A stretch of DNA of 64,000 nt, taken from positions 32,001 through 96,000 of the IMG/VR virus record IMGVR_UViG_3300017917_001030, one strand, 5' to 3'. The number at the start of each line of letters is the position of its first letter. Within the stretch, counting starts at the first letter, position 1. The translations under genes and the position numbers were made by a program. Below, piece by piece: positions 26,614 to 52,464 of the stretch. The notes under the pieces are model-generated. The model had not been told where the DNA came from, searched no databases, and saw only the letters and a list, made by a program, of their open reading frames with translations. This stretch comes from a virus.

Positions 26614-26688
26614 CGCGGGGTAGCGCAGAAGTAGAGCGCCGGGCTCATAATCCGGAGGTCGGAGGTGCGATTCCTTCCCCCGCAACCA
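26614..26688 (+). tRNA. tRNA-Met(CAT), initiator-like
   Basis: C1:A72 mismatch, CGCGGGG start, loop CTCATAA, CCA end. Confidence 0.88.
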
Positions 26689-31861: not shown

Positions 31862-32939
31862 CTGACTTAGGTTCGTCTAATTGTGGGATTTTATCTGGAT
31901 TGGAATTCCAGTATGATCTAGCTTGTTCACCTATTTTTCCCTCTACTGGGCAAGGAGTTCCTGCTGCCAACATAGCGTCAAAGACACGACGATCTTGACA
32001 CATTGTTGCTACAGCAGCAACCTTCATACCCATATCATAAAGAGTTTTAGATAGCTTTAATCGTTCACAATTCATATCACGAACAGTGCCGCCAGAACTA
32101 ACACCAAATATTTGTGTTTGAACTGCGCCAGATGTACCTGTTGTACAAAGATCATTATTGCCACCAGACATCATATTAGGAGAGAATGCACTTGGCGGCG
32201 GTGTTATTAACCTTTGTTGTATGTTGGTCTCGTTTATGTTACGATTAGTCATATCACCAGTTTGTACGTTCTGGTTTATACTTTGACTGGAACTCAGATT
32301 CAAGTTTGTATTTTTATTTTCACTTGTTGATGTAGCAGTTGTAGTGTTAATATTTCTATTTGTCATATCACCAGTGTTGATATTATTATTTGTAGATGTA
32401 CTTACGTTATTATTGTTATTTGTATTTACGTTTGTACTTGTGCTGGTGACATTGCTAATATTACGAACCGTTTGATCTCCGTAGTTATAATTAGTATTTG
32501 TATTATTACTTGTAGTATTGTTATTGTTATTAAAGGTCTGAGTTCCAGAATTTACGTTGTAATTTGTGTTCGTGTTGGTATTTGATGACGTGTTCACATT
32601 ATTATTGTTGTAGGTCATCGTCCCAGAATTGACGTTATTGTTATTATACGTCATCGTTCCGGTGTTCACGTTGTTATTGTTTATTGTTTGAGTTCCACTG
32701 TTTACGTTATAATTAGTATTTGTGGAAGTATTATTATTTGTACTCGTTGAAGTACTATTTACCGTAGATGTACTGGTACTAGTAGCTGTACTAGTATTGG
32801 TATTGTTTGTATTTACGGTACTAGTAGAAGTTGAATTATTGTTAGTATCTACTAGCGTTTTTGAATCGTATACGGTTTGTGTGAAACCAGCACCACTTAG
32901 CATAACAAAAAGCAGCCCGCTGGCTAACTTTTTGTTCAT
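31791..32939 (-). CDS. Secreted Asn/Thr-repeat protein with Cys-containing C-terminal domain
   Basis: Signal peptide; NxN/TxT repeats; RDMNCERLKLSK...MCQD...AGTPCP. Confidence 0.75.
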   Translation of the reverse strand: MNKKLASGLLFVMLSGAGFTQTVYDSKTLVDTNNNSTSTSTVNTNNTNTSTATSTSTSTVNSTSTSTNNNTSTNTNYNVNSGTQTINNNNVNTGTMTYNNNNVNSGTMTYNNNNVNTSSNTNTNTNYNVNSGTQTFNNNNNTTSNNTNTNYNYGDQTVRNISNVTSTSTNVNTNNNNNVSTSTNNNINTGDMTNRNINTTTATSTSENKNTNLNLSSSQSINQNVQTGDMTNRNINETNIQQRLITPPPSAFSPNMMSGGNNDLCTTGTSGAVQTQIFGVSSGGTVRDMNCERLKLSKTLYDMGMKVAAVATMCQDRRVFDAMLAAGTPCPVEGKIGEQARSYWNSNPDKIPQLDEPKSDDTYKKIGIGALLGASIYKLFGF

Positions 32940-42180: not shown

Positions 42181-42570
42181 ATGGTTAAGAACTTCATTGT
42201 AGGTAGCGACGTAGAAATCACGACAAAGTGGAAATCAAATCTGCTTTGGCGAGACTATGACGTCAACACTTTCAAGGGCAAAGTAGTTGCAAATCCTAAA
42301 TGGCTTGACAACGACTACGTTTCCGTGTATACTGGGAATACAGATTACCCTGTATCCTATATTCACAAGAAGTTCATTGTGGGATTCGATATGGCTGAGA
42401 ATCGTAGCGATCTGCGAATATTCAAAGTCAAATCGAAGACTAAAGGAAGTGTCTACAATGTCACTTCCGTTGGTGGCAAGGTATCTTGCGATTGTGTTGG
42501 TTTCCAATTCCGCAGATACTGTAAGCATTCGGATTCAGTCAAGAAGCTTTTGGACAAAGAAAGTGCTTGA
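42181..42570 (+). CDS. SWIM zinc-finger protein, probably leaderless
   Basis: CDC...CKH; ATG 7 nt after the -10 box. Confidence 0.75.
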   Translation: MVKNFIVGSDVEITTKWKSNLLWRDYDVNTFKGKVVANPKWLDNDYVSVYTGNTDYPVSYIHKKFIVGFDMAENRSDLRIFKVKSKTKGSVYNVTSVGGKVSCDCVGFQFRRYCKHSDSVKKLLDKESA

Positions 42571-42595
42571 CAAGTTGAACAGAATGCTATATAAT
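42567..42595 (+). promoter_or_regulatory. Sigma70-type early promoter
   Basis: TTGACA-17 nt-TATAAT. Confidence 0.8.
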
Positions 42596-42638
42596 TTGAC
42601 TTGTGATTGTTTAATATCTTTTGAAAAGGATCTATATT

Positions 42639-43070
42639 ATGTCTAAAACTTCAGCAACATTCACCGTCGCCGGTGTGTCTACTCAGAACGGCGTTACTAA
42701 AGTGCGCTTTGCTAATGACTTGGCATCTCGTGTCAAGCTCTTGTCTAAAGGTGGGCATTCCCCTCTTGAACTTATTGAGTTGCCTAAGGCAATGACTAAG
42801 GCTGAGGCTTGCCAGCATCTTCTTAGTGTTGGCGGAGTGTTCAATCAATGGACTGATCTGATTAATCAGACCATGGATAAGAAGTCTGGCGTTGTTGTGG
42901 CTCAAGCCAAAGCAGCAAAGCCTGCAAAGAAAGCGACCCCTGCTAAAGCTGCAGTACCTGCTAAGAAAGCAGCACCGGCTAAAAAGGCAGTCCCCGCTAA
43001 AGCACCTAAGGCATCTGCCGAAGATGATTTTGAGATTGAGGAATTGAAAGAGCTTGCTGAGGCAAACTAA
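42639..43070 (+). CDS. Protein with histone H1-like PAKK repeats
   Basis: PAKKA/PAKA repeats and acidic tail. Confidence 0.7.
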   Translation: MSKTSATFTVAGVSTQNGVTKVRFANDLASRVKLLSKGGHSPLELIELPKAMTKAEACQHLLSVGGVFNQWTDLINQTMDKKSGVVVAQAKAAKPAKKATPAKAAVPAKKAAPAKKAVPAKAPKASAEDDFEIEELKELAEAN

Positions 43071-43133
43071 TTCAAAAAAGTATCACTAGAACCGTTGGTC
43101 AGGCTATATATAATATATAGCAAGGAAAGTAAA

Positions 43134-43250
43134 ATGTTACTAATATCTAAACCCCTACACTGCGAGAGCAATTATATTGGCAGACAGCCAGTAGAAGCCT
43201 TTGCACGCACAAATTCATGGGATGAATTTACCGAGGGGCGGGATAGTTAA
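43134..43250 (+). CDS. Putative attenuator leader peptide (38 aa, all 20 amino acids)
   Basis: AAGGA SD; MLLISKPLHCESNYIGRQPVEAFARTNSWDEFTEGRDS; overlaps antiterminator strand. Confidence 0.75.
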   Translation: MLLISKPLHCESNYIGRQPVEAFARTNSWDEFTEGRDS

Positions 43251-43310
43251 GTAGTATACTACGTTCTTAACAAAACCCTCGGTACCCCTAAAGTCCGAGG
43301 GTTTTTCTTT
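43229..43310 (+). promoter_or_regulatory. Transcription attenuator (antiterminator/terminator)
   Basis: TACCGAGGG (43229-37) can pair with CCCTCGGTA (43276-84), competing with terminator AAAACCCTCGG/CCGAGGGTTTT plus T-tract. Confidence 0.75.
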
Positions 43311-43337
43311 ATATGACAATTTTTAATAACCTTGTGC

Positions 43338-43366
43338 TTGACAGGGTTTCTAAAAGGTGTTATAAT
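43338..43366 (+). promoter_or_regulatory. Sigma70 promoter of the tRNA array
   Basis: TTGACA-17 nt-TATAAT. Confidence 0.85.
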
Positions 43367-43396
43367 AAGCATCTGGTTTAGAAGTGTTCTAAACAT

Positions 43397-43408
43397 TGTT
43401 CTTTAAAA
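43397..43408 (+). promoter_or_regulatory. boxA-like antitermination site
   Basis: TGTTCTTTAAAA versus rrn boxA TGCTCTTTAACA; lies between promoter and first tRNA. Confidence 0.6.
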
Positions 43409-43423
43409 ATTTGCATTCCAATT

Positions 43424-43497
43424 ACCCGGTTAGCTCAAAGGTAGAGCACACGACTGATAATCGTGAGACAGAGGATCGTTACCTCTACTGGGTACCA
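43424..43497 (+). tRNA. tRNA-Ile(GAT)
   Basis: Cloverleaf, loop CTGATAA, CCA; T-loop ATCGTTA. Confidence 0.88.
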
Positions 43498-43569
43498 TAT
43501 AAAAACACATTACGGCAACCTGCCTGAGGGAGAGGATACCGAACTAGTGTCGGGTAGTGTGTTTCTATA
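43498..43569 (+). ncRNA. Long-stem element type B, copy 1
   Basis: TATAAAAACACATTA ... TAGTGTGTTTCTATA. Confidence 0.55.
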
Positions 43570-43577
43570 TAGTTTAT

Positions 43578-43654
43578 GCTCGGTTCGTCTAGCGGTCCAG
43601 GACAACGGCCTTTCACGTCGTAGATCACGGGTTCAAATCCCGTACCGAGTACCA
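43578..43654 (+). tRNA. tRNA-Glu(TTC)
   Basis: Loop CTTTCAC, CCA. Confidence 0.92.
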
Positions 43655-43660
43655 CAAATT

Positions 43661-43745
43661 GGAGGTGTAGGAAAATTGGTAACCCCAGCGGACTGTAAAT
43701 CCGCCGCCCCTGGCACTACTTGTTCGACTCAAGTCACCTCCACCA
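43661..43745 (+). tRNA. tRNA-Tyr(GTA)
   Basis: Loop CTGTAAA, variable arm, CCA. Confidence 0.92.
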
Positions 43746-43750
43746 TATTA

Positions 43751-43859
43751 AGGATGCGAACAGCAATCTTTTTTAACTTTAAGCCAAACGAGTGGTCCGG
43801 TTCGATTCCGGCTTGTGGTGTAATGGTAGCATACCCGTCAAAAGTAAAAAGGCATCCTG
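43751..43859 (+). ncRNA. Y-RNA-like element A1 (T-arm then D-arm)
   Basis: AGGATGC-GAA-CAGCAA ... GCATCCTG; CCGG-TTCGATT-CCGG followed by GTGT-AATGGTA-GCAT. Confidence 0.7.
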
Positions 43860-43867
43860 TTAATAAT

Positions 43868-43945
43868 GGCTAGGTGGCAGAGTGGTCCAATGCAGCGGAT
43901 TGCAAATCCGTAAAGTCGTCAGTTCGAATCTGACTCTAGCTTCCA
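43868..43945 (+). tRNA. tRNA-Cys(GCA)
   Basis: Loop TTGCAAA, U73, CCA. Confidence 0.92.
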
Positions 43946-43957
43946 ACAAAAAAGTGC

Positions 43958-43985
43958 TTGACTTTTTTAGTACAGGCATTATAAT
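43958..43985 (+). promoter_or_regulatory. Sigma70-type promoter
   Basis: TTGACT-16 nt-TATAAT. Confidence 0.7.
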
Positions 43986-44136
43986 AAGTACATAAATTAA
44001 TAACACGCCTCGCAGCGTTATTAAACTAGTGTTAGCTCTGCTAATTACTAGCGCAAATATAAACGGTGCATCAACGATGTGCTTTCGGTATCCGCGATAG
44101 AGATACGGCTAAAGTTCGTAATGCCAAAAGTATTTA

Positions 44137-44211
44137 GGTCTCAAAGTGTTCATGGACGCACGCAAGCCTGTCACGCTTGAAGAAGGGGATCGTTACCCCT
44201 TGGGACCGCCA
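44137..44211 (+). tRNA. tRNA-Asp(GTC)
   Basis: Loop CTGTCAC, G73, CCA; T-loop ATCGTTA. Confidence 0.88.
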
Positions 44212-44214
44212 AGA

Positions 44215-44330
44215 TTTAGTAAGTGCTGTTTACAGCAACCGTGTCACAAGTCTAGGGTTGAGGCTCTAGTTTAGTATGTTTACATACACCGTGTTGCAAG
44301 TGAAGGGTTGAGGCTCTTCCTTACTAAATA
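44215..44330 (+). ncRNA. Tandem-motif ncRNA
   Basis: Closing stem TTTAGTAAG/CTTACTAAA; two copies of ACCGTGTnnCAAGTnnAGGGTTGAGGCTCT. Confidence 0.55.
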
Positions 44331-44350
44331 TTTTTATCTCAAAGTTTTAT

Positions 44351-44425
44351 TCCGGAGTAGCACAGCGGTAGTGCAGTTGACTGTTAATCAATTGGTCGTA
44401 GGTTCGATCCCTGCCTCCGGAGCCA
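44351..44425 (+). tRNA. tRNA-Asn(GTT)
   Basis: Loop CTGTTAA, CCA. Confidence 0.95.
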
Positions 44426-44430
44426 GTTAT

Positions 44431-44506
44431 GCGGGTGTAATTCAGTTGGTAGAATGCTTCCTTGCCAAGGAAGATGTCGAGAGTTCGAGTCTCTTCGCCC
44501 GCTCCA
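44431..44506 (+). tRNA. tRNA-Gly(GCC)
   Basis: Loop TTGCCAA, U73, CCA. Confidence 0.95.
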
Positions 44507-44511
44507 GTTTT

Positions 44512-44571
44512 AGGATAGTAACAGCAATCAAAAAGCATACATTTGTAACTGTAAAAGCAAACTCTATCCTG
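44512..44571 (+). ncRNA. Y-RNA-like element A2
   Basis: AGGATAG-TAA-CAGCAA ... CTATCCTG; internal TACA-TTTGTAAC-TGTA. Confidence 0.65.
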
Positions 44572-44581
44572 TTATTTTTTA

Positions 44582-44658
44582 GCCCCGGTGACGGAATTGG
44601 TATACGTGTTGGTCTTAGAAACCAAATTTTAGGAGTTCGAGTCTCCTCTGGGGCACCA
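44582..44658 (+). tRNA. tRNA-Leu(TAG), short variable loop
   Basis: Loop CTTAGAA, A73, CCA; 77 nt. Confidence 0.85.
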
Positions 44659-44661
44659 AGT

Positions 44662-44828
44662 TTTGTAAGTGTAGATGTTGAGAAAGCATGTATAGGCATA
44701 TATGTGTGAGGCGGATATGAAACCCCGACAAGTAACAACTAGTACTACGTACCTCTAACCAGTCCGCGGCTTATCTAGAAAATACTGGTAAAATGGTTCC
44801 GAATGAGGGAGGCGGAACTACTTACAAA
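44662..44828 (+). ncRNA. Putative structured ncRNA
   Basis: Closing stem TTTGTAAGT/ACTTACAAA; internal ACCAGT/ACTGGT and GTTCCG/CGGAAC. Confidence 0.45.
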
Positions 44829-44877
44829 TTCATTCTCGCTTTGACTTATGGCGTACAATAGGATAAATTATAAGTCA

Positions 44878-44943
44878 TTTTTAAAGTACATTATGAAAAG
44901 AATTCCGAGATAAATCGGTAGGTAACATAGTGTATTTTAAAAA
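44878..44943 (+). ncRNA. Long-stem element type B, divergent copy
   Basis: TTTTTAAAGTACATTA ... TAGTGTATTTTAAAAA. Confidence 0.45.
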
Positions 44944-44945
44944 TT

Positions 44946-45021
44946 GGGGCCATAGCTCATCTGGGAGAGCGCCTGTTTTGCAAGCAGGAGGCGGTCGGTT
45001 CGAGTCCGACTGGTTCCACCA
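44946..45021 (+). tRNA. tRNA-Ala(TGC)
   Basis: G3:U70, loop TTTGCAA, CCA. Confidence 0.95.
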
Positions 45022-45025
45022 AATT

Positions 45026-45100
45026 GCCTGGATAGCTCAGGGGTAGAGCGTCTCCCTTACAAGGAGAGGGTCCGCGGTTCGAAACCGTGTCCAGGTACCA
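45026..45100 (+). tRNA. tRNA-Val(TAC)
   Basis: Loop CTTACAA, CCA. Confidence 0.95.
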
Positions 45101-45105
45101 ATCAT

Positions 45106-45182
45106 CGGGGTGTAGCGCAGCCTGGTAGCGCATCTGCTTTGGGAGCAGGAGGTCGTGAGTTCGAGTCCCACCACCCCGACCA
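45106..45182 (+). tRNA. tRNA-Pro(TGG)
   Basis: Loop TTTGGGA, CCA. Confidence 0.95.
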
Positions 45183-45197
45183 TCATAAGGAAATGCT

Positions 45198-45464
45198 ATG
45201 TCATATGTACCATTGAGAGATAAAGTTCTGTTGGAAGAAACAGAAAAAGCTACAGTCACAGAAAGCGGAATTTATTTAGGTGACGCTCGTGCAGATAACA
45301 ATACACGACCAGGTCGTGTTCTTGCAGTAGGTCCAGAAGTGTCCGAAATCAAAGCAGGAGATATTGTTTACGTGATGTGGCAAAAATCTCATATCATCAA
45401 AGAAGGCGATAAATTGCTTGCAATCGTAGGCATAGATGATATAATTGCAGTATTAGAAGATTAA
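45198..45464 (+). CDS. GroES-like co-chaperonin
   Basis: PLRDKVLL, TESGIYL, GRVLAVGP, DIIAV. Confidence 0.88.
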   Translation: MSYVPLRDKVLLEETEKATVTESGIYLGDARADNNTRPGRVLAVGPEVSEIKAGDIVYVMWQKSHIIKEGDKLLAIVGIDDIIAVLED

Positions 45465-45465
45465 T

Positions 45466-45542
45466 GTGACCATAGCTCAGTAGGATAGAGCATCTGCCTT
45501 CTAAGCAGACGGTCGGGGGTTCGAATCCCTCTGGTCACGCCA
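45466..45542 (+). tRNA. tRNA-Arg(TCT)
   Basis: Loop CTTCTAA, CCA. Confidence 0.95.
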
Positions 45543-45547
45543 GTTTT

Positions 45548-45611
45548 AGGATAGTAACAGCAACCACAATTTACACTAGACTTATAATCTAACCAGTAAA
45601 ATTCTATCCTG
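45548..45611 (+). ncRNA. Y-RNA-like element A3 displaying an anticodon-type loop
   Basis: AGGATAG-TAA-CAGCAA ... CTATCCTG; internal TAGA-CTTATAA-TCTA. Confidence 0.68.
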
Positions 45612-45615
45612 TTAT

Positions 45616-45691
45616 TCCCTCTTCGCCAAGTTGGTAAGGCATCGGATTTTGATTCCGACATTCGGTGGTTCGAGTCCATCAGGGGGAGCCA
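45616..45691 (+). tRNA. tRNA-Gln(TTG)
   Basis: U1:A72, loop TTTTGAT, G73, CCA. Confidence 0.92.
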
Positions 45692-45697
45692 ATTAGT

Positions 45698-45776
45698 TGG
45701 GGCGTAGTGTACTCTGGTATTAGCACACTGGTCTTTGAAACCAGTAGATTGGGTTCGATTCCCGACGCCCTTACCA
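45698..45776 (+). tRNA. Second tRNA with TTG anticodon (atypical Gln)
   Basis: Loop CTTTGAA; U1:U72 mismatch, A73, CCA. Confidence 0.75.
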
Positions 45777-45790
45777 TATTATTTTTAAAC

Positions 45791-45857
45791 GGAGAACGAC
45801 ATGAAACGAGGTAAACTCTAGTGTCATCCCAGGTCCCGTATTGGTCTTGGATGGCAC
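45791..45857 (+). other. Minigene (MKRGKL*) plus hairpin
   Basis: GGAG SD, ATG 45801, TAG 45819-21, stem GTGTCATCC/GGATGGCAC. Confidence 0.45.
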
Positions 45858-45882
45858 GTAAAATCAATTTAATTACGACCAT

Positions 45883-45959
45883 CCCTTGCTGGCGTCAACG
45901 GTTAGCGTACCGGACTCTTAATCCGCGAGGTCTCAGTTCGAATCTGAGGCAAGGGACCA
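45883..45959 (+). tRNA. tRNA-Lys(CTT)
   Basis: Loop CTCTTAA, CCA. Confidence 0.88.
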
Positions 45960-45963
45960 ATAT

Positions 45964-46038
45964 GGGATTGAAGCTTTAAGGTGAAGCAACGGACTTTTAA
46001 TCCGTAGAACTGGGATCGTCGGCCCAGCAGTCCTACCA
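45964..46038 (+). tRNA. tRNA-Lys(TTT)
   Basis: Loop CTTTTAA, CCA; atypical T-loop ATCGTCGG. Confidence 0.82.
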
Positions 46039-46125
46039 TATAAAAACACATTAAACGCCCACCCATCGTGGTTGATGGCCGGTAGTTGCGTCTCTAACCA
46101 AGCCGCTTCATAGTGTGTTTCTATA
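46039..46125 (+). ncRNA. Long-stem element type B, copy 2
   Basis: Same 15-nt arms as 43498-43569, different interior. Confidence 0.55.
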
Positions 46126-46200
46126 TGGTAGTTTAACTCCGTGGTTAACTCCGCCAGGCCGATACGCTCTATAGAGCGTGTCGAAGCAAGGAGCTACCAT
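46125..46200 (+). ncRNA. Putative structured RNA
   Basis: ATGGTAGTTT/GAGCTACCAT stem; CGATACGCTC-TATA-GAGCGTGTCG hairpin. Confidence 0.4.
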
Positions 46201-46217
46201 AACCTAAAAAGATAAAA

Positions 46218-46409
46218 ATGTATATTTCACAAATAGCAAGAATCAACGATCATTATATGGGTCGTGATCGAGAAAAAGTTTATGTTACTTTGAAAGATGA
46301 AAACGGAGCTACTTATACCAGATATGAGCAGTACCTTTTCACGCCTTACAACAAGCAAGGTAAACTAGAAGAATTACAAAAAGGTAATACCATAGATTTA
46401 AAAGCTTAG
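46218..46409 (+). CDS. Small hypothetical protein
   Basis: 63-aa ORF filling a gap between RNA genes. Confidence 0.5.
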   Translation: MYISQIARINDHYMGRDREKVYVTLKDENGATYTRYEQYLFTPYNKQGKLEELQKGNTIDLKA

Positions 46410-46484
46410 CGGTCCTTAGTTCAATGGATAGAATGCCATGCTTCGAACTTGGAGATGTGGGTTCGATTCCTGCAGGACCGGCCA
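46410..46484 (+). tRNA. tRNA-Arg(TCG)
   Basis: Loop CTTCGAA, CCA. Confidence 0.85.
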
Positions 46485-46488
46485 ATTT

Positions 46489-46564
46489 GCCCTGGTGACG
46501 GAACGGTATACGTGTCGGATTCAAAATCCGAATTCTGAGAGTTCGAATCTCTCCTGGGGCACCA
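46489..46564 (+). tRNA. tRNA-Leu(CAA), short variable loop
   Basis: Loop TTCAAAA, A73, CCA; 76 nt. Confidence 0.85.
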
Positions 46565-46566
46565 AT

Positions 46567-46642
46567 GGTATTCTTAGTGTAGTGGTCTGCACACGACGTT
46601 GTGACCGTCGTAGTATGAGTTCGATCCTCATAGAATACCCCA
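46567..46642 (+). tRNA. tRNA-His(GTG)
   Basis: G-1:C73, loop TTGTGAC, CCA. Confidence 0.92.
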
Positions 46643-46651
46643 AACAATTAT

Positions 46652-46727
<76 letters not shown>

Positions 46728-46732
46728 AATAT

Positions 46733-46822
46733 GGAAGCGTGGTAGAGTGGTCTAATACGTCAGCCTTGAAAACTGAAGATTCTTAATCGGGTCCGTGAGT
46801 TCGAATCTCACCGCTTCCACCA
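46733..46822 (+). tRNA. tRNA-Ser(TGA)
   Basis: Loop CTTGAAA, long variable arm, CCA. Confidence 0.92.
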
Positions 46823-46921
46823 GTATTCTTGCAAGAAGAAAACACTGCGCCCTGAGCCTCACCGGGCGGTATGTCAGTTACAAAACAGTAGGGTAAGAGT
46901 CCCAAGGAGAGGCACGAATAC
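46823..46921 (+). ncRNA. Putative structured RNA
   Basis: Closing stem GTATTCTTGC/GCACGAATAC; internal CGCCC/GGGCG. Confidence 0.4.
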
Positions 46922-46924
46922 AAT

Positions 46925-47015
46925 AGTGAGATGCGAGAGTTGGTCTAATCGGCCTCCCTGGAAAGGAGTGCATCGTGCAAACGGTACTAGGGTTCGAATC
47001 CCTATCTCACTGCCA
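46925..47015 (+). tRNA. tRNA-Ser(GGA)
   Basis: Loop CTGGAAA, long variable arm, G73, CCA. Confidence 0.9.
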
Positions 47016-47017
47016 AC

Positions 47018-47105
47018 GGAAGATTAACTGAGTAGGACTCAGCACTGATTCGAAACCAGTTGGACTCAGAAATGGGTTGGGGATCGAGACCTCAGTCTTC
47101 CACCA
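47018..47105 (+). tRNA. Atypical tRNA-Ser(CGA) with Sec-like long D stem
   Basis: Loop TTCGAAA; D stem CTGAGT/ACTCAG; variable arm; CCA. Confidence 0.72.
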
Positions 47106-47107
47106 GG

Positions 47108-47136
47108 TTGACACTAAAATCAAAAGATGTTATAAT
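47108..47136 (+). promoter_or_regulatory. Sigma70 promoter
   Basis: TTGACA-17 nt-TATAAT. Confidence 0.85.
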
Positions 47137-47156
47137 TAATTTTTAAGGAGTTAAAG

Positions 47157-47678
47157 ATGCCAGCAGTATTCATTGTTAGTGATACGCACTTCGGGCATGC
47201 TGGTGTCTGCAAATTCTTACGTGAAGATGGCACCAAGCTTAGACCATGGGACTCACCTGAAGAAATGGATGAGGCAATGGTTAAGGCCTGGAACGAAACA
47301 GTTAGACCTAATGATAAAGTTTATCACCTCGGCGACGTAGTTATTAATCGCAAAGCTCTACACATTCTTGGTAGACTGAATGGTGATAAAGTTCTTATCA
47401 AAGGCAACCATGATATTTTTAAGTTAGAGGATTATACTCAATACTTCAGAGATATTCGTGCATATCATGTAATGAACAACTACATTCTTTCCCACATTCC
47501 TGTTCACGCATCGTCAAAGGGAAGGTTTGCAGGTAACATTCATGGGCACCTACACTCTAACAAAGTAATGACTATGGACGGTAACTTTGTTGATCCATGG
47601 TATCAGTGTGTTTGTGTAGAGCAAACTGATTTTAGGCCTATTACATTTGAAAATGTATTGAAACGATTTGAAAAATAA
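47157..47678 (+). CDS. Calcineurin-like metallophosphoesterase
   Basis: SDTHFGH, HLGD, GNHD, SHIP, HGHLH. Confidence 0.9.
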   Translation: MPAVFIVSDTHFGHAGVCKFLREDGTKLRPWDSPEEMDEAMVKAWNETVRPNDKVYHLGDVVINRKALHILGRLNGDKVLIKGNHDIFKLEDYTQYFRDIRAYHVMNNYILSHIPVHASSKGRFAGNIHGHLHSNKVMTMDGNFVDPWYQCVCVEQTDFRPITFENVLKRFEK

Positions 47679-47768
47679 GGAAGACGGGCAGGACGGTAAT
47701 GCAGCGGATTGCTAATCCGTAGACCGTAGTAATACGGTCAGTGGGTTCGACTCCCACGTCTTCCACCA
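47679..47768 (+). tRNA. tRNA-Ser(GCT)
   Basis: Loop TTGCTAA, long variable arm, CCA. Confidence 0.92.
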
Positions 47769-47773
47769 GTTTT

Positions 47774-47887
47774 AGGATACTTGCAGCAAATTCACAGCAA
47801 TGAAAGCCGTGTGTTTTAGGTTCGATTCCTAAATTCCCCGTTAGGAGAATTAGCTCAATTGGTAGAGCAACGAAAAAGAGTATCCTG
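47774..47887 (+). ncRNA. Y-RNA-like element A4 with circularly permuted tRNA core
   Basis: AGGATAC-TTG-CAGCAA ... GTATCCTG; T-arm, loop-closed acceptor stem, TA, D-arm. Confidence 0.8.
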
Positions 47888-47895
47888 TTATTTTT

Positions 47896-47987
47896 GCCAG
47901 CGAGACTGGGTAGTCAGAGAGGTCTTATAAACCTTTTAGCGCCAGATTAGCGTTCTTGAGAGTGTTCGAGTCACTCCGCTGGTACCA
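47896..47987 (+). tRNA. Atypical tRNA with TAT anticodon (Ile?) and long variable arm
   Basis: Loop CTTATAA; 4-nt D loop; canonical T arm; CCA. Confidence 0.7.
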
Positions 47988-47991
47988 TTTT

Positions 47992-48066
47992 GGTGATATG
48001 ACGTAGACGGATGCGTAGCGGTTTCATAAGCCGACGAGGTTGGATCGTTACCAACTATCACCACCA
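47992..48066 (+). tRNA. tRNA-Met(CAT), elongator-like
   Basis: Loop TTCATAA, CCA; T-loop ATCGTTA. Confidence 0.82.
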
Positions 48067-48074
48067 TATATAAT

Positions 48075-48151
48075 GCGTCCTTAGCATAACTGGAGAATGC
48101 ACTGGTTTACGAAGCCAGGGGATGGGAGTTCGAATCTCTTGGGACGCACCA
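48075..48151 (+). tRNA. tRNA-Arg(ACG)
   Basis: Loop TTACGAA, CCA. Confidence 0.92.
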
Positions 48152-48157
48152 TATAAA

Positions 48158-48231
48158 GCTCCTATAGTTAAGTGGTATAACGTATCCTTGGTAAGGATAA
48201 ATTCTGAGTTCAATTCTCGGTGGGAGCACCA
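48158..48231 (+). tRNA. tRNA-Thr(GGT)
   Basis: Loop TTGGTAA, CCA. Confidence 0.92.
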
Positions 48232-48246
48232 ACAAAGGAGTTACTT

Positions 48247-48426
48247 ATGAGCGGCAAAGGTTCCAAACCAAGACCATTCAGTGTAGATAGTGATACCTAC
48301 AGTAATAATTGGAATGCAATTTTCGGTAAGAAAAAAGACAATACTGGTACAGATAAGAATGAATATTATGATGTACTAAGTACAGAAGAATCATTAACAG
48401 AAAACGAAAAAGATAAAACAGAATAA
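48247..48426 (+). CDS. Small phage protein (GKGSKPRP N-terminus)
   Basis: AAGGAG SD; MSGKGSKPRPFSV...NWNAIF. Confidence 0.65.
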   Translation: MSGKGSKPRPFSVDSDTYSNNWNAIFGKKKDNTGTDKNEYYDVLSTEESLTENEKDKTE

Positions 48427-48430
48427 TTAT

Positions 48431-48504
48431 GCATCCCTGATGTAATGGCAGCATGACGGTCTCCAAAACCGTTCGTCGGGGTTCGAGTCCCTGGGGGTGT
48501 GCCA
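48431..48504 (+). tRNA. tRNA-Trp(CCA)
   Basis: Loop CTCCAAA, G73, CCA. Confidence 0.92.
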
Positions 48505-48584
48505 ATATTCGTGAGCAGGTTTAATTTCGATCTCAGCGGCCCTGACGATCAAAAATTAAAACCTTTTTATTAATACCCTGACGG

Positions 48585-48613
48585 TTGACAGAGTCATTGA
48601 AAGACATTATAAT
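48585..48613 (+). promoter_or_regulatory. Sigma70 promoter
   Basis: TTGACA-17 nt-TATAAT. Confidence 0.85.
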
Positions 48614-48633
48614 AATGGTATAGTAAGTTAAAT

Positions 48634-48711
48634 GCGGGTAGACAGGACAAGGGGCGTCCAGCAGCCTTCCAAGCTGAAGATCGCGGAGTTCGACTCTCCC
48701 TACCCGCTCCA
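48634..48711 (+). tRNA. tRNA-Gly(TCC), apparent 8/4 fold
   Basis: Loop CTTCCAA, U73, CCA; GCGGGTAG/CTACCCGC with a 4-bp T stem. Confidence 0.82.
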
Positions 48712-48729
48712 ATTTTGTTAGGTGGTACT

Positions 48730-49209
48730 ATGAGAAAGCAAATTAACATCGAAGAAATCAAGTCGTTTATCGACGCCCAGAGTCCCGAAACCAAAATTTA
48801 CATTGGTGCGGATTCAGAACGTTACAAACGTGATGGTGTTTGGTATGCCGACTATACTCTTGCTGTTGTAGTACACATCGACGGTCGTCATGGTTGTAAG
48901 ATTTTCGGTGAAGTTCAAACCGAAATCGACTATGACAAAAAGAACAGTCGCCCTGCAATGCGACTAATGAACGAAGTTTACAAAGTATCAGAACTATATC
49001 ACAAGCTTGTTGATGTTGTTGGTGATCGAGAAGTCCAAATACATCTTGACATCAACCCGCAAGAATGTTATAATAGTTCAATAGTAATTCAACAAGCCGT
49101 AGGTTATATCAAAGGAACTTGTAACATTATTCCGATGGTTAAACCGAAAGCTTTTGCAGCAAGCTATGCCGCAGACCGACTAAAGGAAGTCTTGGCGCTT
49201 GCAGCTTGA
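48730..49209 (+). CDS. RNase H-like YkuK (DUF458) family protein
   Basis: IYIGADS, RLMNEV, IHLDIN, AASYAAD. Confidence 0.8.
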   Translation: MRKQINIEEIKSFIDAQSPETKIYIGADSERYKRDGVWYADYTLAVVVHIDGRHGCKIFGEVQTEIDYDKKNSRPAMRLMNEVYKVSELYHKLVDVVGDREVQIHLDINPQECYNSSIVIQQAVGYIKGTCNIIPMVKPKAFAASYAADRLKEVLALAA

Positions 49210-49215
49210 GAATAA

Positions 49216-49290
49216 GCCGAAGTAGCACAACGGTAGTGCAGCGCTCTTGTAAAGCGAAGGTTGAGGGTTCGATTCCTTTCTTCGGCACCA
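49216..49290 (+). tRNA. tRNA-Thr(TGT)
   Basis: Loop CTTGTAA, CCA. Confidence 0.93.
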
Positions 49291-49296
49291 GTTATT

Positions 49297-49523
49297 AGGA
49301 TGAGTACAGCAGTCACAAAACGAAAATAAAGTACTGCCCATTCACGGAGGACCACCGTAAGGTGTAATTTTATGGGCTATGGGGCATACCTGAAATAAAA
49401 TAGCGATGCTGGTTAACCAGATAGACTAACATACTCGAATGTATGTTTGATTTCAGTGGGGAATTCGCCCGAAAGGGAGCACTGGGGTTCAAGAACCAAG
49501 TTAATACTAACCCGACCATCCTG
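49297..49523 (+). ncRNA. Y-RNA-like element A5 (long, 227 nt)
   Basis: AGGATGA-GTA-CAGCAG ... CATCCTG; multiple internal hairpins including GNRA loops. Confidence 0.6.
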
Positions 49524-49534
49524 CTTATATTATT

Positions 49535-49631
49535 AGAATAGGTTCAGCAAACATCTAGCGGTGTAATACCCGCATTATAGGAAGGTGAGTTTCGAGTTTT
49601 CACCATAATCAAAAAGTAGAAAACTATTCTG
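49535..49631 (+). ncRNA. Y-RNA-like element A6
   Basis: AGAATAG-GTT-CAGCAA ... CTATTCTG (compensatory change); T-loop-like GGTGAG-TTTCGAG-TTTCACC. Confidence 0.65.
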
Positions 49632-49675
49632 ATGTATAGGTTAAAATAAATCATAACCTGAAAGTGAGAAAAAAT

Positions 49676-51112
49676 ATGAATACTTTTGTTGAAGCAGTAG
49701 CAAATCAAGAAGCCCGTACCACTAACGGTATGAAGGCTCGTAAGTCCACCGCATCCGCTGTTGTAGATTTGTTCTACAATATTGGTGCATCCCGTGGCAA
49801 GAATGTTATCCCCGGCTTTACTGCCGCACTTGCAGAGAACCGTGACTTGGCACTTCGTGTTGCAGCATGGGCTCGTGATGTGCGTGGTGGTGCAGGTGAA
49901 CGACAACTCTTCCGTGACATTCTTGTCTACTTGGAAAAGTACGACCCCGAAGCAGCTAAGGCTCTTTTGGCTAAGGTACCTGAGCTGGGTCGTTGGGACG
50001 ACTTGTTCGTCTTTAAGACCAAGGAGCTAAAGGAAGCAGCATACACTATGTTGGGTGACGCATTGCGTGAACGCAACGGTCTGGCTGCTAAGTGGACTCC
50101 TCGTCAAGGCCCTATTGCTTTGGAAATCCGTAAGTTCTTCGGCATGTCGCCTAAGTTCTATCGTAAGTCCTTGGTTAACCTAACTAAGGTCGTTGAACAA
50201 GATATGTGTGCTAAGAACTGGGATAACATCAACTTCTCTCATGTTCCTTCGGTTGCGGCATCCCGTTACAAGAAGGCATTTAACCGTAACACTGAAAAGT
50301 ATGCAGAATACGTAAAGTCGTTGGTTAAGGGAGATAACCCGGAAGTTAAGGTCAACGCAGGCGCAGTATATCCATATGATGTAGTGAAGGGAATCATCCC
50401 TAACTCTTATGTCAAAAGCGCTTTTGACAAGACAGAGCTTGACCTAATTGAAAAGCAATGGGAAGCTCTTCCTAATTACGTAGGCGATGCTAACATTCTT
50501 CCTTTGGTTGACGTTAGCGGGTCGATGTCTTGTCCTGTTGGTGGCTATGGTTCTAAGAATAAGATGTCCTGTATGGATGTTGCTGTTTCGTTGGGACTTT
50601 ACCTTGCGGACAAGAACAAGGGCAAGTTCAAGGATACTTTCTTGACATTTAGCTCTTCGCCAGAACTACTTACTCTAAAGGGTAATATTGTTCAAAAGGT
50701 TACACAAATGGTTGCTTCTAAGTGGGGAATGTCCACCAACCTACACGCAGCATTTTCAAAGATTCTGTCTGTAGCGAAGAAAGGTAATGTTCCGCAAGAA
50801 GAAATGCCAGATATGGTATTGATCTTGTCCGACATGCAATTCAATGCTTGCATTGAGCATGACGACAGTGCAATCAAAATGATTGCTCGTAAGTACGAAG
50901 AAGCAGGCTACACCATGCCTAAGGTTGTATTCTGGAACTTGAATGCTGCATATGGTAACACACCAGTGAAGTTTGACAAGTCTGGTACTGCTTTGGTATC
51001 TGGTTTTAGCCCATCTATTGTTAAGCCTTTGTTGGCAGGCAACCTTGAAACTTTCACCCCAGAAAGTGTCATGTTGCAGACCATCATGCAAGACCGTTAC
51101 GCGGTATTGTAA
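49676..51112 (+). CDS. DUF2828-type protein: helical TROVE/Ro60-like N-terminus plus VWA domain
   Basis: T.NG, RDVRGGAGER, GRWDDL, AAKWTPR, MIDAS VDVSGSM, ILSDMQF, FWNL, LVSGFS. Confidence 0.8.
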   Translation: MNTFVEAVANQEARTTNGMKARKSTASAVVDLFYNIGASRGKNVIPGFTAALAENRDLALRVAAWARDVRGGAGERQLFRDILVYLEKYDPEAAKALLAKVPELGRWDDLFVFKTKELKEAAYTMLGDALRERNGLAAKWTPRQGPIALEIRKFFGMSPKFYRKSLVNLTKVVEQDMCAKNWDNINFSHVPSVAASRYKKAFNRNTEKYAEYVKSLVKGDNPEVKVNAGAVYPYDVVKGIIPNSYVKSAFDKTELDLIEKQWEALPNYVGDANILPLVDVSGSMSCPVGGYGSKNKMSCMDVAVSLGLYLADKNKGKFKDTFLTFSSSPELLTLKGNIVQKVTQMVASKWGMSTNLHAAFSKILSVAKKGNVPQEEMPDMVLILSDMQFNACIEHDDSAIKMIARKYEEAGYTMPKVVFWNLNAAYGNTPVKFDKSGTALVSGFSPSIVKPLLAGNLETFTPESVMLQTIMQDRYAVL

Positions 51113-51208
51113 GTGCTCAATTCTGACAGCACGTTAAACACGGTCAGACGTCGATCTTAAATGACTGCGCCGGCACTACGCAAGGTGTCTCCGTACTCGG
51201 TAAGCGGA
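51113..51208 (+). ncRNA. Structured 3' element with H-type pseudoknot
   Basis: GTGCT/AGCAC interleaved with TCTGAC/GTCAGA; terminal TCCG...CGGA hairpin. Confidence 0.45.
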
Positions 51209-51237
51209 ACTAATTTCAATTTTGGTTAACCTATTGG

Positions 51238-51266
51238 TTGACGAAAATTTGCCAAGGCTATATAAT
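51238..51266 (+). promoter_or_regulatory. Sigma70 promoter
   Basis: TTGACG-17 nt-TATAAT. Confidence 0.75.
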
Positions 51267-51277
51267 AAGTGTTTTAT

Positions 51278-51360
51278 GCGGGTGTGGTGAAATAGGTAGA
51301 CACAGGAGACTTAAAATCTCCCGCTTCGGCGTGCTGGTTCGAGTCCGGTCACCCGTACCA
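51278..51360 (+). tRNA. tRNA-Leu(TAA)
   Basis: Loop CTTAAAA, variable arm, CCA. Confidence 0.95.
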
Positions 51361-51373
51361 TTATTCTAAAACT

Positions 51374-51838
51374 ATGAAAGATAATATGTCACTAACTTTA
51401 CAAAATATTGAAAGTGCTTTGGCGGGTGAGTCTATGGCTCATATCAAGTATCGTTACTTTGCCAAAATTGCACGTGAGGAAGGCTTCGAAGAAGTCGCAA
51501 AACATTTTGAACATACTGCAGATCAAGAAATTCTTCATGCTTGGGGTCACCTTGAGCTGTTGATTGGTAAGCCTAATACCAAAGAATGCCTTGAAAAAGC
51601 TATTGCAGGTGAGACTTATGAGTATACTGAAATGTATCCTAAGTTCGAGCATCAGGCAAAAGCAGAATCTAATATCGAAGCAGTTAAAGAGTTCAACGAA
51701 CAAGGTCGTGAATCCTTGCAGCATGCTCAAGAATTTAAAGCAGTATTGGCAAAAGCAGAAAAGCGCTTTGCTGCTCTTAAGGGTGTCGAGAAGCGTCATG
51801 CTGAAGCATACCAAAAAGTTCTTGGAGGTCTAGCATGA
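51374..51838 (+). CDS. Rubrerythrin (diiron domain; start may be 51386)
   Basis: AGESMA..KY..FA..A..EG, E..HA, GETYEYTEMYP. Confidence 0.9.
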   Translation: MKDNMSLTLQNIESALAGESMAHIKYRYFAKIAREEGFEEVAKHFEHTADQEILHAWGHLELLIGKPNTKECLEKAIAGETYEYTEMYPKFEHQAKAESNIEAVKEFNEQGRESLQHAQEFKAVLAKAEKRFAALKGVEKRHAEAYQKVLGGLA

Positions 51839-51990
51839 GCGATAATCAATACGAATACAAGCATGTCTGTCCTGTTTGTGACTATGTTCATGAGGACAAT
51901 GAAACTACTCCATTCGATCAAATGCCTGCTGATTATGTTTGCCCAGCATGCGGTGTCGAAAAAGATTGGTTTGATAAACGAGTTGCATGA
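51835..51990 (+). CDS. Rubredoxin
   Basis: CPVCDYVH ... PADYVCPACGVEKDWF; ATGA coupling on both sides. Confidence 0.88.
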   Translation: MSDNQYEYKHVCPVCDYVHEDNETTPFDQMPADYVCPACGVEKDWFDKRVA

Positions 51991-52382
51991 TTGATTGTCT
52001 AGTCATCGGTGATTCTATTGCCGTAGGTGTTCAGCAGTTTAGGCAAGAGTGTGCGATCTATGCTAAGGTAGGTATTAATAGCAGAGATTGGAACAACAAG
52101 TTTATCGGCAAAGACCTACGTGCAAATACAGTTATTATTAGCCTGGGGTCTAACGACTCCGGCAATATTAAGACTGCTGCAGAGCTAAACGAACTAAGAC
52201 AATCGGTAACATCCAAAAAAGTAGTTTGGATTTTGCCTTCTAATAATAGTGACAAACGAGACATCGTAAAATTCATAGCAGAAAAATACGGTGATATTGT
52301 GTTGGGTGTAAATCAACTATCCAAAGACGGTGTGCATCCAACAGTCGCTGGTTATAAAGAATTAGCAAATAATACAAAATAG
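51987..52382 (+). CDS. SGNH/GDSL hydrolase
   Basis: IGDSIA, SLGSND, DGVHP. Confidence 0.85.
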   Translation: MIDCLVIGDSIAVGVQQFRQECAIYAKVGINSRDWNNKFIGKDLRANTVIISLGSNDSGNIKTAAELNELRQSVTSKKVVWILPSNNSDKRDIVKFIAEKYGDIVLGVNQLSKDGVHPTVAGYKELANNTK

Positions 52383-52387
52383 TTTTT

Positions 52388-52464
52388 GCGCCTGTAGCTC
52401 AGTTGGTTAGAGCAGTGGACTCATAATCCATTGGTCGCGGGTTCAAGTCCCTCCGGGCGCACCA
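52388..52464 (+). tRNA. tRNA(CAT), probably Ile2 (lysidine type)
   Basis: Loop CTCATAA; body resembles ileX-type tRNAs; CCA. Confidence 0.85.

Follow-up and report, generated by a model that had tools for sequence, protein, structure and literature searches.

We describe here a short open reading frame (ORF), referred to below as the leader, that lies at the head of a long array of tRNA genes in viral DNA. The window, by which we mean the whole 64,000-nucleotide (nt) stretch that was analysed (positions 32,001 to 96,000 of IMG/VR record IMGVR_UViG_3300017917_001030), is part of a viral record of 130.6 kb that is ~72% complete; amongst its phage genes are those for a family-B DNA polymerase and a DnaB-type helicase. 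When a cultured-phage collection was searched at the DNA and protein levels, neither the region nor the gene upstream of the leader gave a match. The features of the locus are collected in Table 1. In outline, a gene with its own promoter is followed by the leader, a terminator, a second promoter and then the tRNA genes; every one of the 20 amino acids occurs in the leader peptide, and the 3′ end of the ORF is complementary to the 5′ arm of the terminator. Both properties are found in diverged relatives, and it is from this family, rather than from the single locus, that we shall argue for a ribosome-dependent control of transcription into the array.

Table 1. Features at the head of the tRNA array, with positions numbered from the first nucleotide of the window.
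Feature	Position	Strand	Description and basis
Sigma-70 promoter of the upstream gene	42567-42595	+	Consensus, 12/12 match
Upstream gene	42621-43070	+	149 amino acids, Ala/Lys/Pro-rich tail; anchor for fetching related loci
T/A-only box	43104-43119	+	Variant of the exact 8-base box of the family; promoter-like; sequence reading and family comparison
Shine-Dalgarno sequence	43122-43126	+	Purine-rich, 7 nt ahead of the ATG; sequence reading
Leader ORF	43134-43250	+	38 sense codons plus stop; ATG at 43134, stop codon 43248-43250; sequence reading and ORF list
Region 1 (tentative)	43152-43156	+	Paired to 43234-43238 when the ORF is folded to minimum energy
Long imperfect hairpin in the ORF	43161-43205	+	Codons 10-24; folding
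Second hairpin in the ORF	43211-43229	+	8 bp; the 'pause' hairpin of the first-pass annotation; folding
Region 2, antiterminator strand	43229-43237	+	Codons 32-35, 11-19 nt ahead of the stop codon
Region 3, terminator 5′ arm	43272-43282	+	43276-43284 pair with region 2
Region 4, terminator 3′ arm with T-run	43295-43310	+	Folding and family covariation
Array-proximal sigma-70 promoter	43338-43366	+	12/12 match with TG extension; between terminator and first tRNA gene; conserved in relatives
tRNA array	43424-52464	+	31 genes, all 20 amino acids; ARAGORN

The first-pass annotation, made from the sequence of the window without database searches, had placed at this position a 38-codon ORF preceded by a Shine-Dalgarno sequence, and this is borne out by reading of the sequence and by the ORF list. 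The same is true of its two counts: the set of 20 amino acids is complete by codon 30, and 32 of the 38 codons are distinct. Amongst the 308 ATG-to-stop ORFs of 25-48 codons in the window, the leader is the only one to contain every amino acid. It had also been proposed that the frequency of complete sets be computed for stretches of phage coding sequence. In 38-residue segments drawn from the phage's own long ORFs this frequency is 40 in 14,104, compared with 0.4% in random draws, and in 33-residue segments of its proteins it is 5 in 14,364. The leader taken singly is therefore only mildly unusual in its amino-acid completeness, and for this reason the case that it did not arise by chance rests on diverged relatives. 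A search of PHROGs placed neither the leader peptide nor the product of the upstream gene in a family, and a permissive Rfam scan of 42900-43450 returned 15 weak matches, none reaching the gathering score.

Relatives were reached through the upstream gene, whose product has a conserved N-terminal domain followed by a repeat tail rich in Ala, Lys and Pro; it has 226 relatives in viral contigs, and the best 80 of these define the related loci considered here. A leader stands at the head of a tRNA array in 54 of the 80. Fifty copies, with that in the window additional, were detected by profile (hidden Markov model, HMM) search, and four further copies (L026, L031, L043 and L072) were recognised by their architecture; a 55th copy (L044) is cut by the end of its contig. 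Nine further copies that had been called as proteins emerged when 1.84 billion representative proteins were searched with the profile. Two of these library members, P0005 (64 amino acids) and P0009 (45 amino acids), run past the usual stop, which has been lost or moved, and may be decayed copies of the leader. The profile matches together with the window comprise 33 distinct DNA versions, which encode 29 distinct peptides of 29-38 residues, and the mean column identity of the family is ~40%. In 13 lineage representatives, all <65% identical to each other, the leader frame contains no stop at all; the two alternative frames have 18 and 27. The leader is also linked in a fixed manner to the head of the array: the first tRNA gene begins 78-340 nt past the leader stop in all 46 HMM-detected leaders with enough downstream sequence (the other four such loci end within 244 nt), and the linkage holds both where the leader abuts the anchor gene and where it lies ~0.9 kb away.

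Amongst the 29 family peptides, 18 contain 20 kinds of amino acid, nine contain 19 and two contain 18. The leaders recognised by architecture have 20, 20, 19 and 19 kinds, and the nine library members have 20 in four cases (one of them the 64-residue read-through form), 19 in four and 17 in one, the last being the 45-residue P0009. Because relatives share ancestry, nulls that keep the make-up of the family were chosen for judging these counts. Shuffling within alignment columns of the 13 lineage representatives gave on average 0.54 complete peptides and 17.6 kinds, whereas eight of the peptides are complete and the observed mean is 19.5; none of 20,000 shuffles reached either the observed number of complete peptides or the observed mean. 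In a second null, the 16 columns common to at least 60% of lineages were held fixed and the remaining positions were redrawn from the family's pool of variable residues. Over 5,000 draws this gave 0.53 complete peptides on average and never more than five, against the eight observed. His, Lys, Asp, Val and others shift position between lineages, and nearly every peptide keeps each of them once. Since the rare residues relocate from lineage to lineage and yet the set stays whole, completeness is maintained beyond what either null gives, and these comparisons indicate that it is selected.

The choice of codons was considered in relation to the tRNA species that the phage itself encodes, with anticodons matched to codons by simple wobble rules. 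The 38 codons of the leader call on 28 of the 30 phage-encoded anticodon species, those missed being one Leu and one Lys species. By comparison, 38-codon segments of the phage's own genes call on 17.7 species on average and 24 at most (none of 14,104 reaches 28), and synonymous recoding of the leader peptide according to phage codon usage gives a mean of 23.1 species (P = 0.0014). In five relatives for which whole arrays were fetched, the leaders touch 20 of 24, 23 of 25, 24 of 24, 20 of 22 and 20 of 23 anticodon species, with recoding P values of 0.27, 0.047, 0.0009, 0.12 and 0.18, respectively; each count lies above its null mean, which was computed with the codon usage of the window, and two of the five records are closely related. 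Given these limits of kinship and null, the earlier remark that different isoacceptors are sampled can be upheld for the window and for one complete relative (that with P = 0.0009), and describes a trend only in the other four.

There is further evidence that the constraint is not confined to the peptide. Base variability at codon positions 1, 2 and 3 is 0.32, 0.27 and 0.35, with no excess at the third position; several four- and six-fold degenerate codons are unchanged in 9-11 of the 13 lineages; and the ORF, folded by itself and compared with dinucleotide shuffles, has a negative z score in 13 of 13 lineages (mean -1.8), the leader region of the window giving z = -3.8. The lack of a third-position excess, the conserved degenerate codons and the structured ORF are not the pattern left by selection for a peptide alone. 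They fit constraint on the codons or the RNA as well, with both codons and RNA helices as functional parts. It should be noted that a census of amino acids has meaning only if the ORF is translated.

The RNA helices in question involve the terminator that follows the leader. It had been described in the first-pass annotation as strong, and folding gives an 11-bp stem plus a T-run at 43272-43310; a simple terminator scan, which allows loops of up to 8, passes over it on account of its longer loop, whereas folding programs find it. Each of the 22 representatives has the terminator, and pairing extends to 92.4% of cells. Both-sided changes occur in three of its 12 pairs, and none of 500 shuffles reaches the covariation score. 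The perfect 9-bp complementarity previously noted between 43229-43237 (region 2) and 43276-43284 is exact, and folding also recovers the hairpin that had been proposed as a pause site. Over 16 lineages the duplex between regions 2 and 3 (2:3) has an energy of -9.8 to -19.0 kcal/mol and the terminator helix between regions 3 and 4 (3:4) one of -13.8 to -18.3, so that the two are of similar strength; the 2:3 duplex is stronger than 95% of shuffles in 14 of the 16. Region 3 is matched better by the region 2 of its own lineage than by those of other lineages (P = 0.008), and region 2 is its best partner inside the leader in 12 of 13 lineages. Most informative are L043 and L072, both amongst the 14: here the terminator has a different sequence and the 3′ ends of the ORFs match the new arm, L043 with 13 contiguous pairs. 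Taken together, these comparisons indicate that the terminator and the 2:3 helix are conserved and co-varying. Thus, of the pattern that the first-pass annotation had suggested looking for in relatives, namely codon diversity and alternative helices kept while the peptide drifts, the diversity, the terminator and the 2:3 helix are kept, but the peptide is not simply drifting, since it has a 16-column core and is held at the codon level.

The effect of a ribosome on the choice between these helices was modelled by folding the nascent transcript, cut before the 3′ arm of the terminator, with a 30-nt ribosome footprint masked. The probability that the 5′ arm of the terminator is already paired was 0.75 with the ribosome at codons 2-10, 0.63 in the middle of the ORF, 0.33 at the last four positions and 0.62 with no ribosome. 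A drop of 0.2 or more is seen from early to last positions in 15 of 16 lineages and from middle to last positions in 11 of 16. The logic predicted from these pairing probabilities would be one of read-through by default, with termination solely once the ORF has been read to its end.

As regards the source of the transcripts, the simple scan listed no + strand terminator between 43070 and 43134, and transcripts of the upstream gene should therefore run into the leader. A second possible source is the box of T and A residues that precedes the leader. An exact 8-base form of this box occurs upstream of the start in 32 of the 33 distinct family versions, the window having a variant. It falls into two spacing classes: in 22 versions it lies 17-25 nt from the start and a Shine-Dalgarno sequence is present, and in 10 versions it lies only 5-6 nt from the start and there is no Shine-Dalgarno sequence. 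In the whole record (G000) the exact box is present in 12 copies on the + strand and two on the - strand, and nine of the 12 + strand copies lie 19-51 nt before an ORF start. Sites in the window include 5444, 41291, 54033, 58004 and 62664. From this distribution the box is probably a phage-specific promoter element; presumably it is equal to the T4 late-promoter consensus. If it is a -10-like promoter element, the class with a spacing of 5-6 nt suggests messages that are leaderless.

The interpretation that we favour, with a probability of about 0.62, is that the locus is a ribosome-dependent transcription attenuator in which transcription would terminate only after the whole census ORF has been translated. 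The essentials of this idea, a ribosome-gated attenuator at the tRNA array, were already in the first-pass annotation, and the persistence of completeness, terminator and 2:3 pairing in relatives argues in its favour. The scheme that we infer includes translation of the leader, kinetic competition between helices, the direction of the response and promoter activity of the T/A box. Transcripts would enter from the promoter of the upstream gene and, in most relatives, also from the T/A box, and would carry a census ORF of 29-42 codons whose last few codons constitute region 2, able to pair with region 3 of a terminator 20-30 nt later. Were a ribosome delayed at any point up to about codon 25 by a shortage of any one charged tRNA, region 2 would stay free and would capture region 3 as it emerged; the terminator would be blocked and the polymerase would continue into the tRNA genes. 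A ribosome that had completed the census and reached the stop codon would instead cover region 2, so that the terminator could form and transcription end. The array's own sigma-70 promoter would give a basal or early supply, to which the attenuator would add a supply driven by demand.

A more ambitious version of this scheme can be put forward only tentatively, and we would not expect all of it to hold. It would see the locus as a self-test of the whole decoding apparatus, with read-through as its default state, the terminator being switched on solely by a ribosome that had decoded every amino acid and, in the window, 28 of the 30 phage anticodon species. In most relatives the T/A box would drive a late supply of tRNA, set by demand, after host-type promoters fade, and any single tRNA lost to a host anticodon nuclease or to starvation would be restored, making the element a general sensor for counter-defence.

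A number of observations weigh against the attenuator. One is the strong conserved promoter between the terminator and the tRNA genes, which makes the array independent of read-through. That promoter had been pointed out in the first-pass annotation as a caveat and is a full match to consensus (12/12, with a TG extension); the element can only add to transcription of the array. The leader is common in the phage group but not universal, for at 11 related loci tRNA genes lie behind the anchor gene and no leader was found (L024, L025, L028, L029, L034, L045, L048, L049, L068, L071 and L074, of which L034 was classed as leaderless from spacing alone). Within the family, 11 of the 29 peptides miss one or two amino acids, and the conserved 16-column core of the peptide is what would be seen in a functional peptide too. 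Furthermore, the arrays fetched for L085 (G005) and L086 (G003), in the 14.7 kb that follow the leader, cover 19 amino acids, no tRNA-Phe having been found, and the leaders have Phe codons; the leader is best read as a census of amino acids and not as a strict mirror of the array.

The remaining difficulties concern the RNA. The outcome of the masking model follows partly from its design, because the ribosome mask itself covers region 2. Full-length equilibrium folds keep the probability of the terminator at 0.7 or above in 10 of 15 lineages (a count that leaves out L032) wherever the ribosome is placed, and switching at equilibrium is confined to L055, L079, L036 and, in part, the window, within the first ~10 codons. 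Since the terminator wins at equilibrium, the antiterminator would have to win kinetically, as it does in known attenuators. Nor could every amino acid be gauged equally. In each of the 13 lineages Trp lies no more than four codons from region 2, and a shortage of it is probably not sensed, because a ribosome stalled there, with a footprint extending 12-14 nt downstream, would mask region 2; the same holds, in some lineages, for one or two further residues present in single copy. The prediction that all single-copy residues lie clear of region 2 is weakly borne out (combined P = 0.024, with lineages that are not independent). As to a helix between regions 1 and 2 (1:2), one appears in the minimum-energy folds of most ORFs, but it does not go beyond shuffles or cross-lineage pairs (P = 0.07 and 0.12). 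Finally, RNAalifold found no consensus (0 pairs) for the internal hairpin region. The hairpin at codons ~15-20 differs from lineage to lineage, both of its strands having changed, and the consensus is lacking because these lineage-specific stems are out of register in the alignment; for this reason folds of individual sequences and duplex energies were used instead.

Several other explanations have to be set beside the attenuator. One, which we regard as unlikely, accepts that the ORF is translated and gauges decoding, and places the output elsewhere: read-through might occlude the sigma-70 promoter, or the leader RNA of ~180 nt or its peptide might act in trans, as has been reported for products of the Sinorhizobium trp attenuator. 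In its favour are the conserved strong promoter, which lies about 30 nt past the T-run, a leader RNA more structured than shuffles, and the fact that leader and terminator together amount to a small but complete unit of transcription, preceded by a T/A box in 32 of 33 distinct family regions. A conserved and co-varying 2:3 pairing, however, makes sense only if the efficiency of the terminator is modulated; the leader keeps a fixed position at the array head, on the same strand, and this analysis indicated no target in trans. It is less probable still that the leader is a conventional gene for a small protein, equipped with a promoter and terminator of its own, that happens to adjoin the array, its diversity of amino acids a by-product of fold or function. 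Such a gene would account for the 16-column core common to the lineages, for a frame that is open in all members and for the calling of the leader as a protein in public data. It would not lead one to expect a completeness kept by relocation of residues, far past what column make-up gives, nor a codon choice spread over isoacceptors, last codons that co-vary with a terminator arm, or degenerate codons that are conserved with no excess of change at third positions; the peptide also has no PHROG match.

Doubts of the opposite kind, that the frame itself is of no consequence, carry even less weight. A non-coding structured RNA, for instance a processing or stability element 5′ of a tRNA precursor whose frame is open by descent only, is very improbable in our view. 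Folding below shuffles, both in the window (z = -3.8) and in all 13 lineages, and conservation at the level of nucleotides are what such an element would show. What it leaves unexplained is the 20/20 census and its upkeep by compensating changes, the start codon with a Shine-Dalgarno sequence or with a start 5-6 nt past a T/A box, and the contrast between no in-frame stop and 18 and 27 stops in the other frames; no Rfam family was matched at threshold either. That the terminator simply belongs to the upstream gene, with a chance ORF in the 3′ untranslated region, can be set aside almost entirely. No other + strand terminator is listed between that gene and the ORF in the window, and a single 38-codon ORF with all 20 amino acids is, at 40 in 14,104 segments, not very rare. 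In many relatives, though, ~0.9 kb separates the upstream gene from the leader and the leader stays with the array, and the statistics of the whole family oppose chance.

With regard to the array itself, the first-pass annotation had counted 33 tRNA genes; this has to be corrected, as ARAGORN gives 31 downstream of the leader (43424-52464) and one further gene at 26614. More perfect or near-perfect sigma-70 promoters are found inside the tRNA region, at 47108-47136, 48585-48613, 49046-49074 and 51238-51266, so that the array is expected to be transcribed in several blocks. At 92 nt, the tRNA-Ile that ARAGORN calls at 47896-47987 is longer than expected for this kind of tRNA, and its anticodon position (31) is unusual; a mis-call, an insert within the tRNA, or an Ile tRNA of the lysidine type could each account for this. 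In the leaderless relatives the tRNA genes follow the anchor gene directly or are preceded by a plain promoter. Amongst the sequencing runs listed for the stretch there is none of RNA; the single run offered, with a small share and probably of DNA (contigs), matches conserved portions of tRNA genes at 43540-44000 and no part of the leader.

If the attenuator operates as proposed, it would account for how large phages regulate their tRNA arrays, and would tie these arrays to starvation as well as to host defences directed at tRNA. The element would also be a compact natural part, of ~180 nt, that reports a shortage of any tRNA. Should the tentative extension to a self-test of decoding prove true, it would have no known parallel for stable-RNA genes. 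The apparent selection for a full set of amino acids within ~33 codons is an unusual and clean evolutionary signal, and can be searched for in other genomes.

The nearest comparison is with the attenuators of amino-acid operons, which are known for trp, his, leu and phe, in multivalent form for thr and ilvGMEDA, and for pheST. To our knowledge, the leader-peptide attenuators described so far respond to between one and three amino acids apiece, and the genes under their control are biosynthetic or encode synthetases. Like these, the locus described here has a short leader ORF followed by an intrinsic terminator, and an alternative helix that uses the 5′ arm of the terminator and would be masked by a ribosome finishing the ORF; by analogy, stalling of the ribosome is proposed to cause read-through. 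The differences are considerable. There is no run of a sensed amino acid, and each of the 20 occurs at least once in ~33 codons of a complete leader; all 29 family peptides have 18-20 kinds, and because it has no run of regulatory codons the element is set apart as a new variant and is not placed with the trpL or hisL type. The best His_leader matches, for their part, scored 18.7 bits (on the minus strand) and 14.8 bits, the threshold being 49. The genes downstream encode tRNAs, not biosynthetic enzymes or synthetases; a second promoter stands behind the terminator; a 1:2 helix is not established; and folding predicts that in most lineages an untranslated leader would read through and not super-attenuate.

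T-box riboswitches also sense the tRNA pool by a choice between terminator and antiterminator, as is proposed here, but each binds one specific uncharged tRNA directly and needs no translation, whereas the sensor at this locus would be the ribosome; no T-box was amongst the 15 weak Rfam matches in 42900-43450. Drug-sensing leader ORFs of the erm, vmlR and msrD type come closer in that a stalled ribosome remodels the RNA downstream and reports on the state of translation in general. That stalling depends on a drug and on the nascent peptide and occurs at one site; at the present locus any codon of the census could be the place of the stall. A further parallel is the trn operon of Anabaena PCC 7120, a long tRNA array that is reported to be induced under translational stress (PMC8421152, PMC10272220). 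A spare tRNA array that is more expressed when translation is impaired is what we propose for the phage as well, although the Anabaena control acts at the promoter and depends on direct repeats and on the TrcR repressor. The main text of PMC8421152 contains no word that begins with 'attenuat' or 'leader'. Full-text literature searching, with supplementary files outside its scope, found no published leader-peptide control of tRNA genes. Set beside all of these systems, the locus appears to represent the attenuation mechanism rebuilt as a general gauge of decoding capacity over viral tRNA genes.

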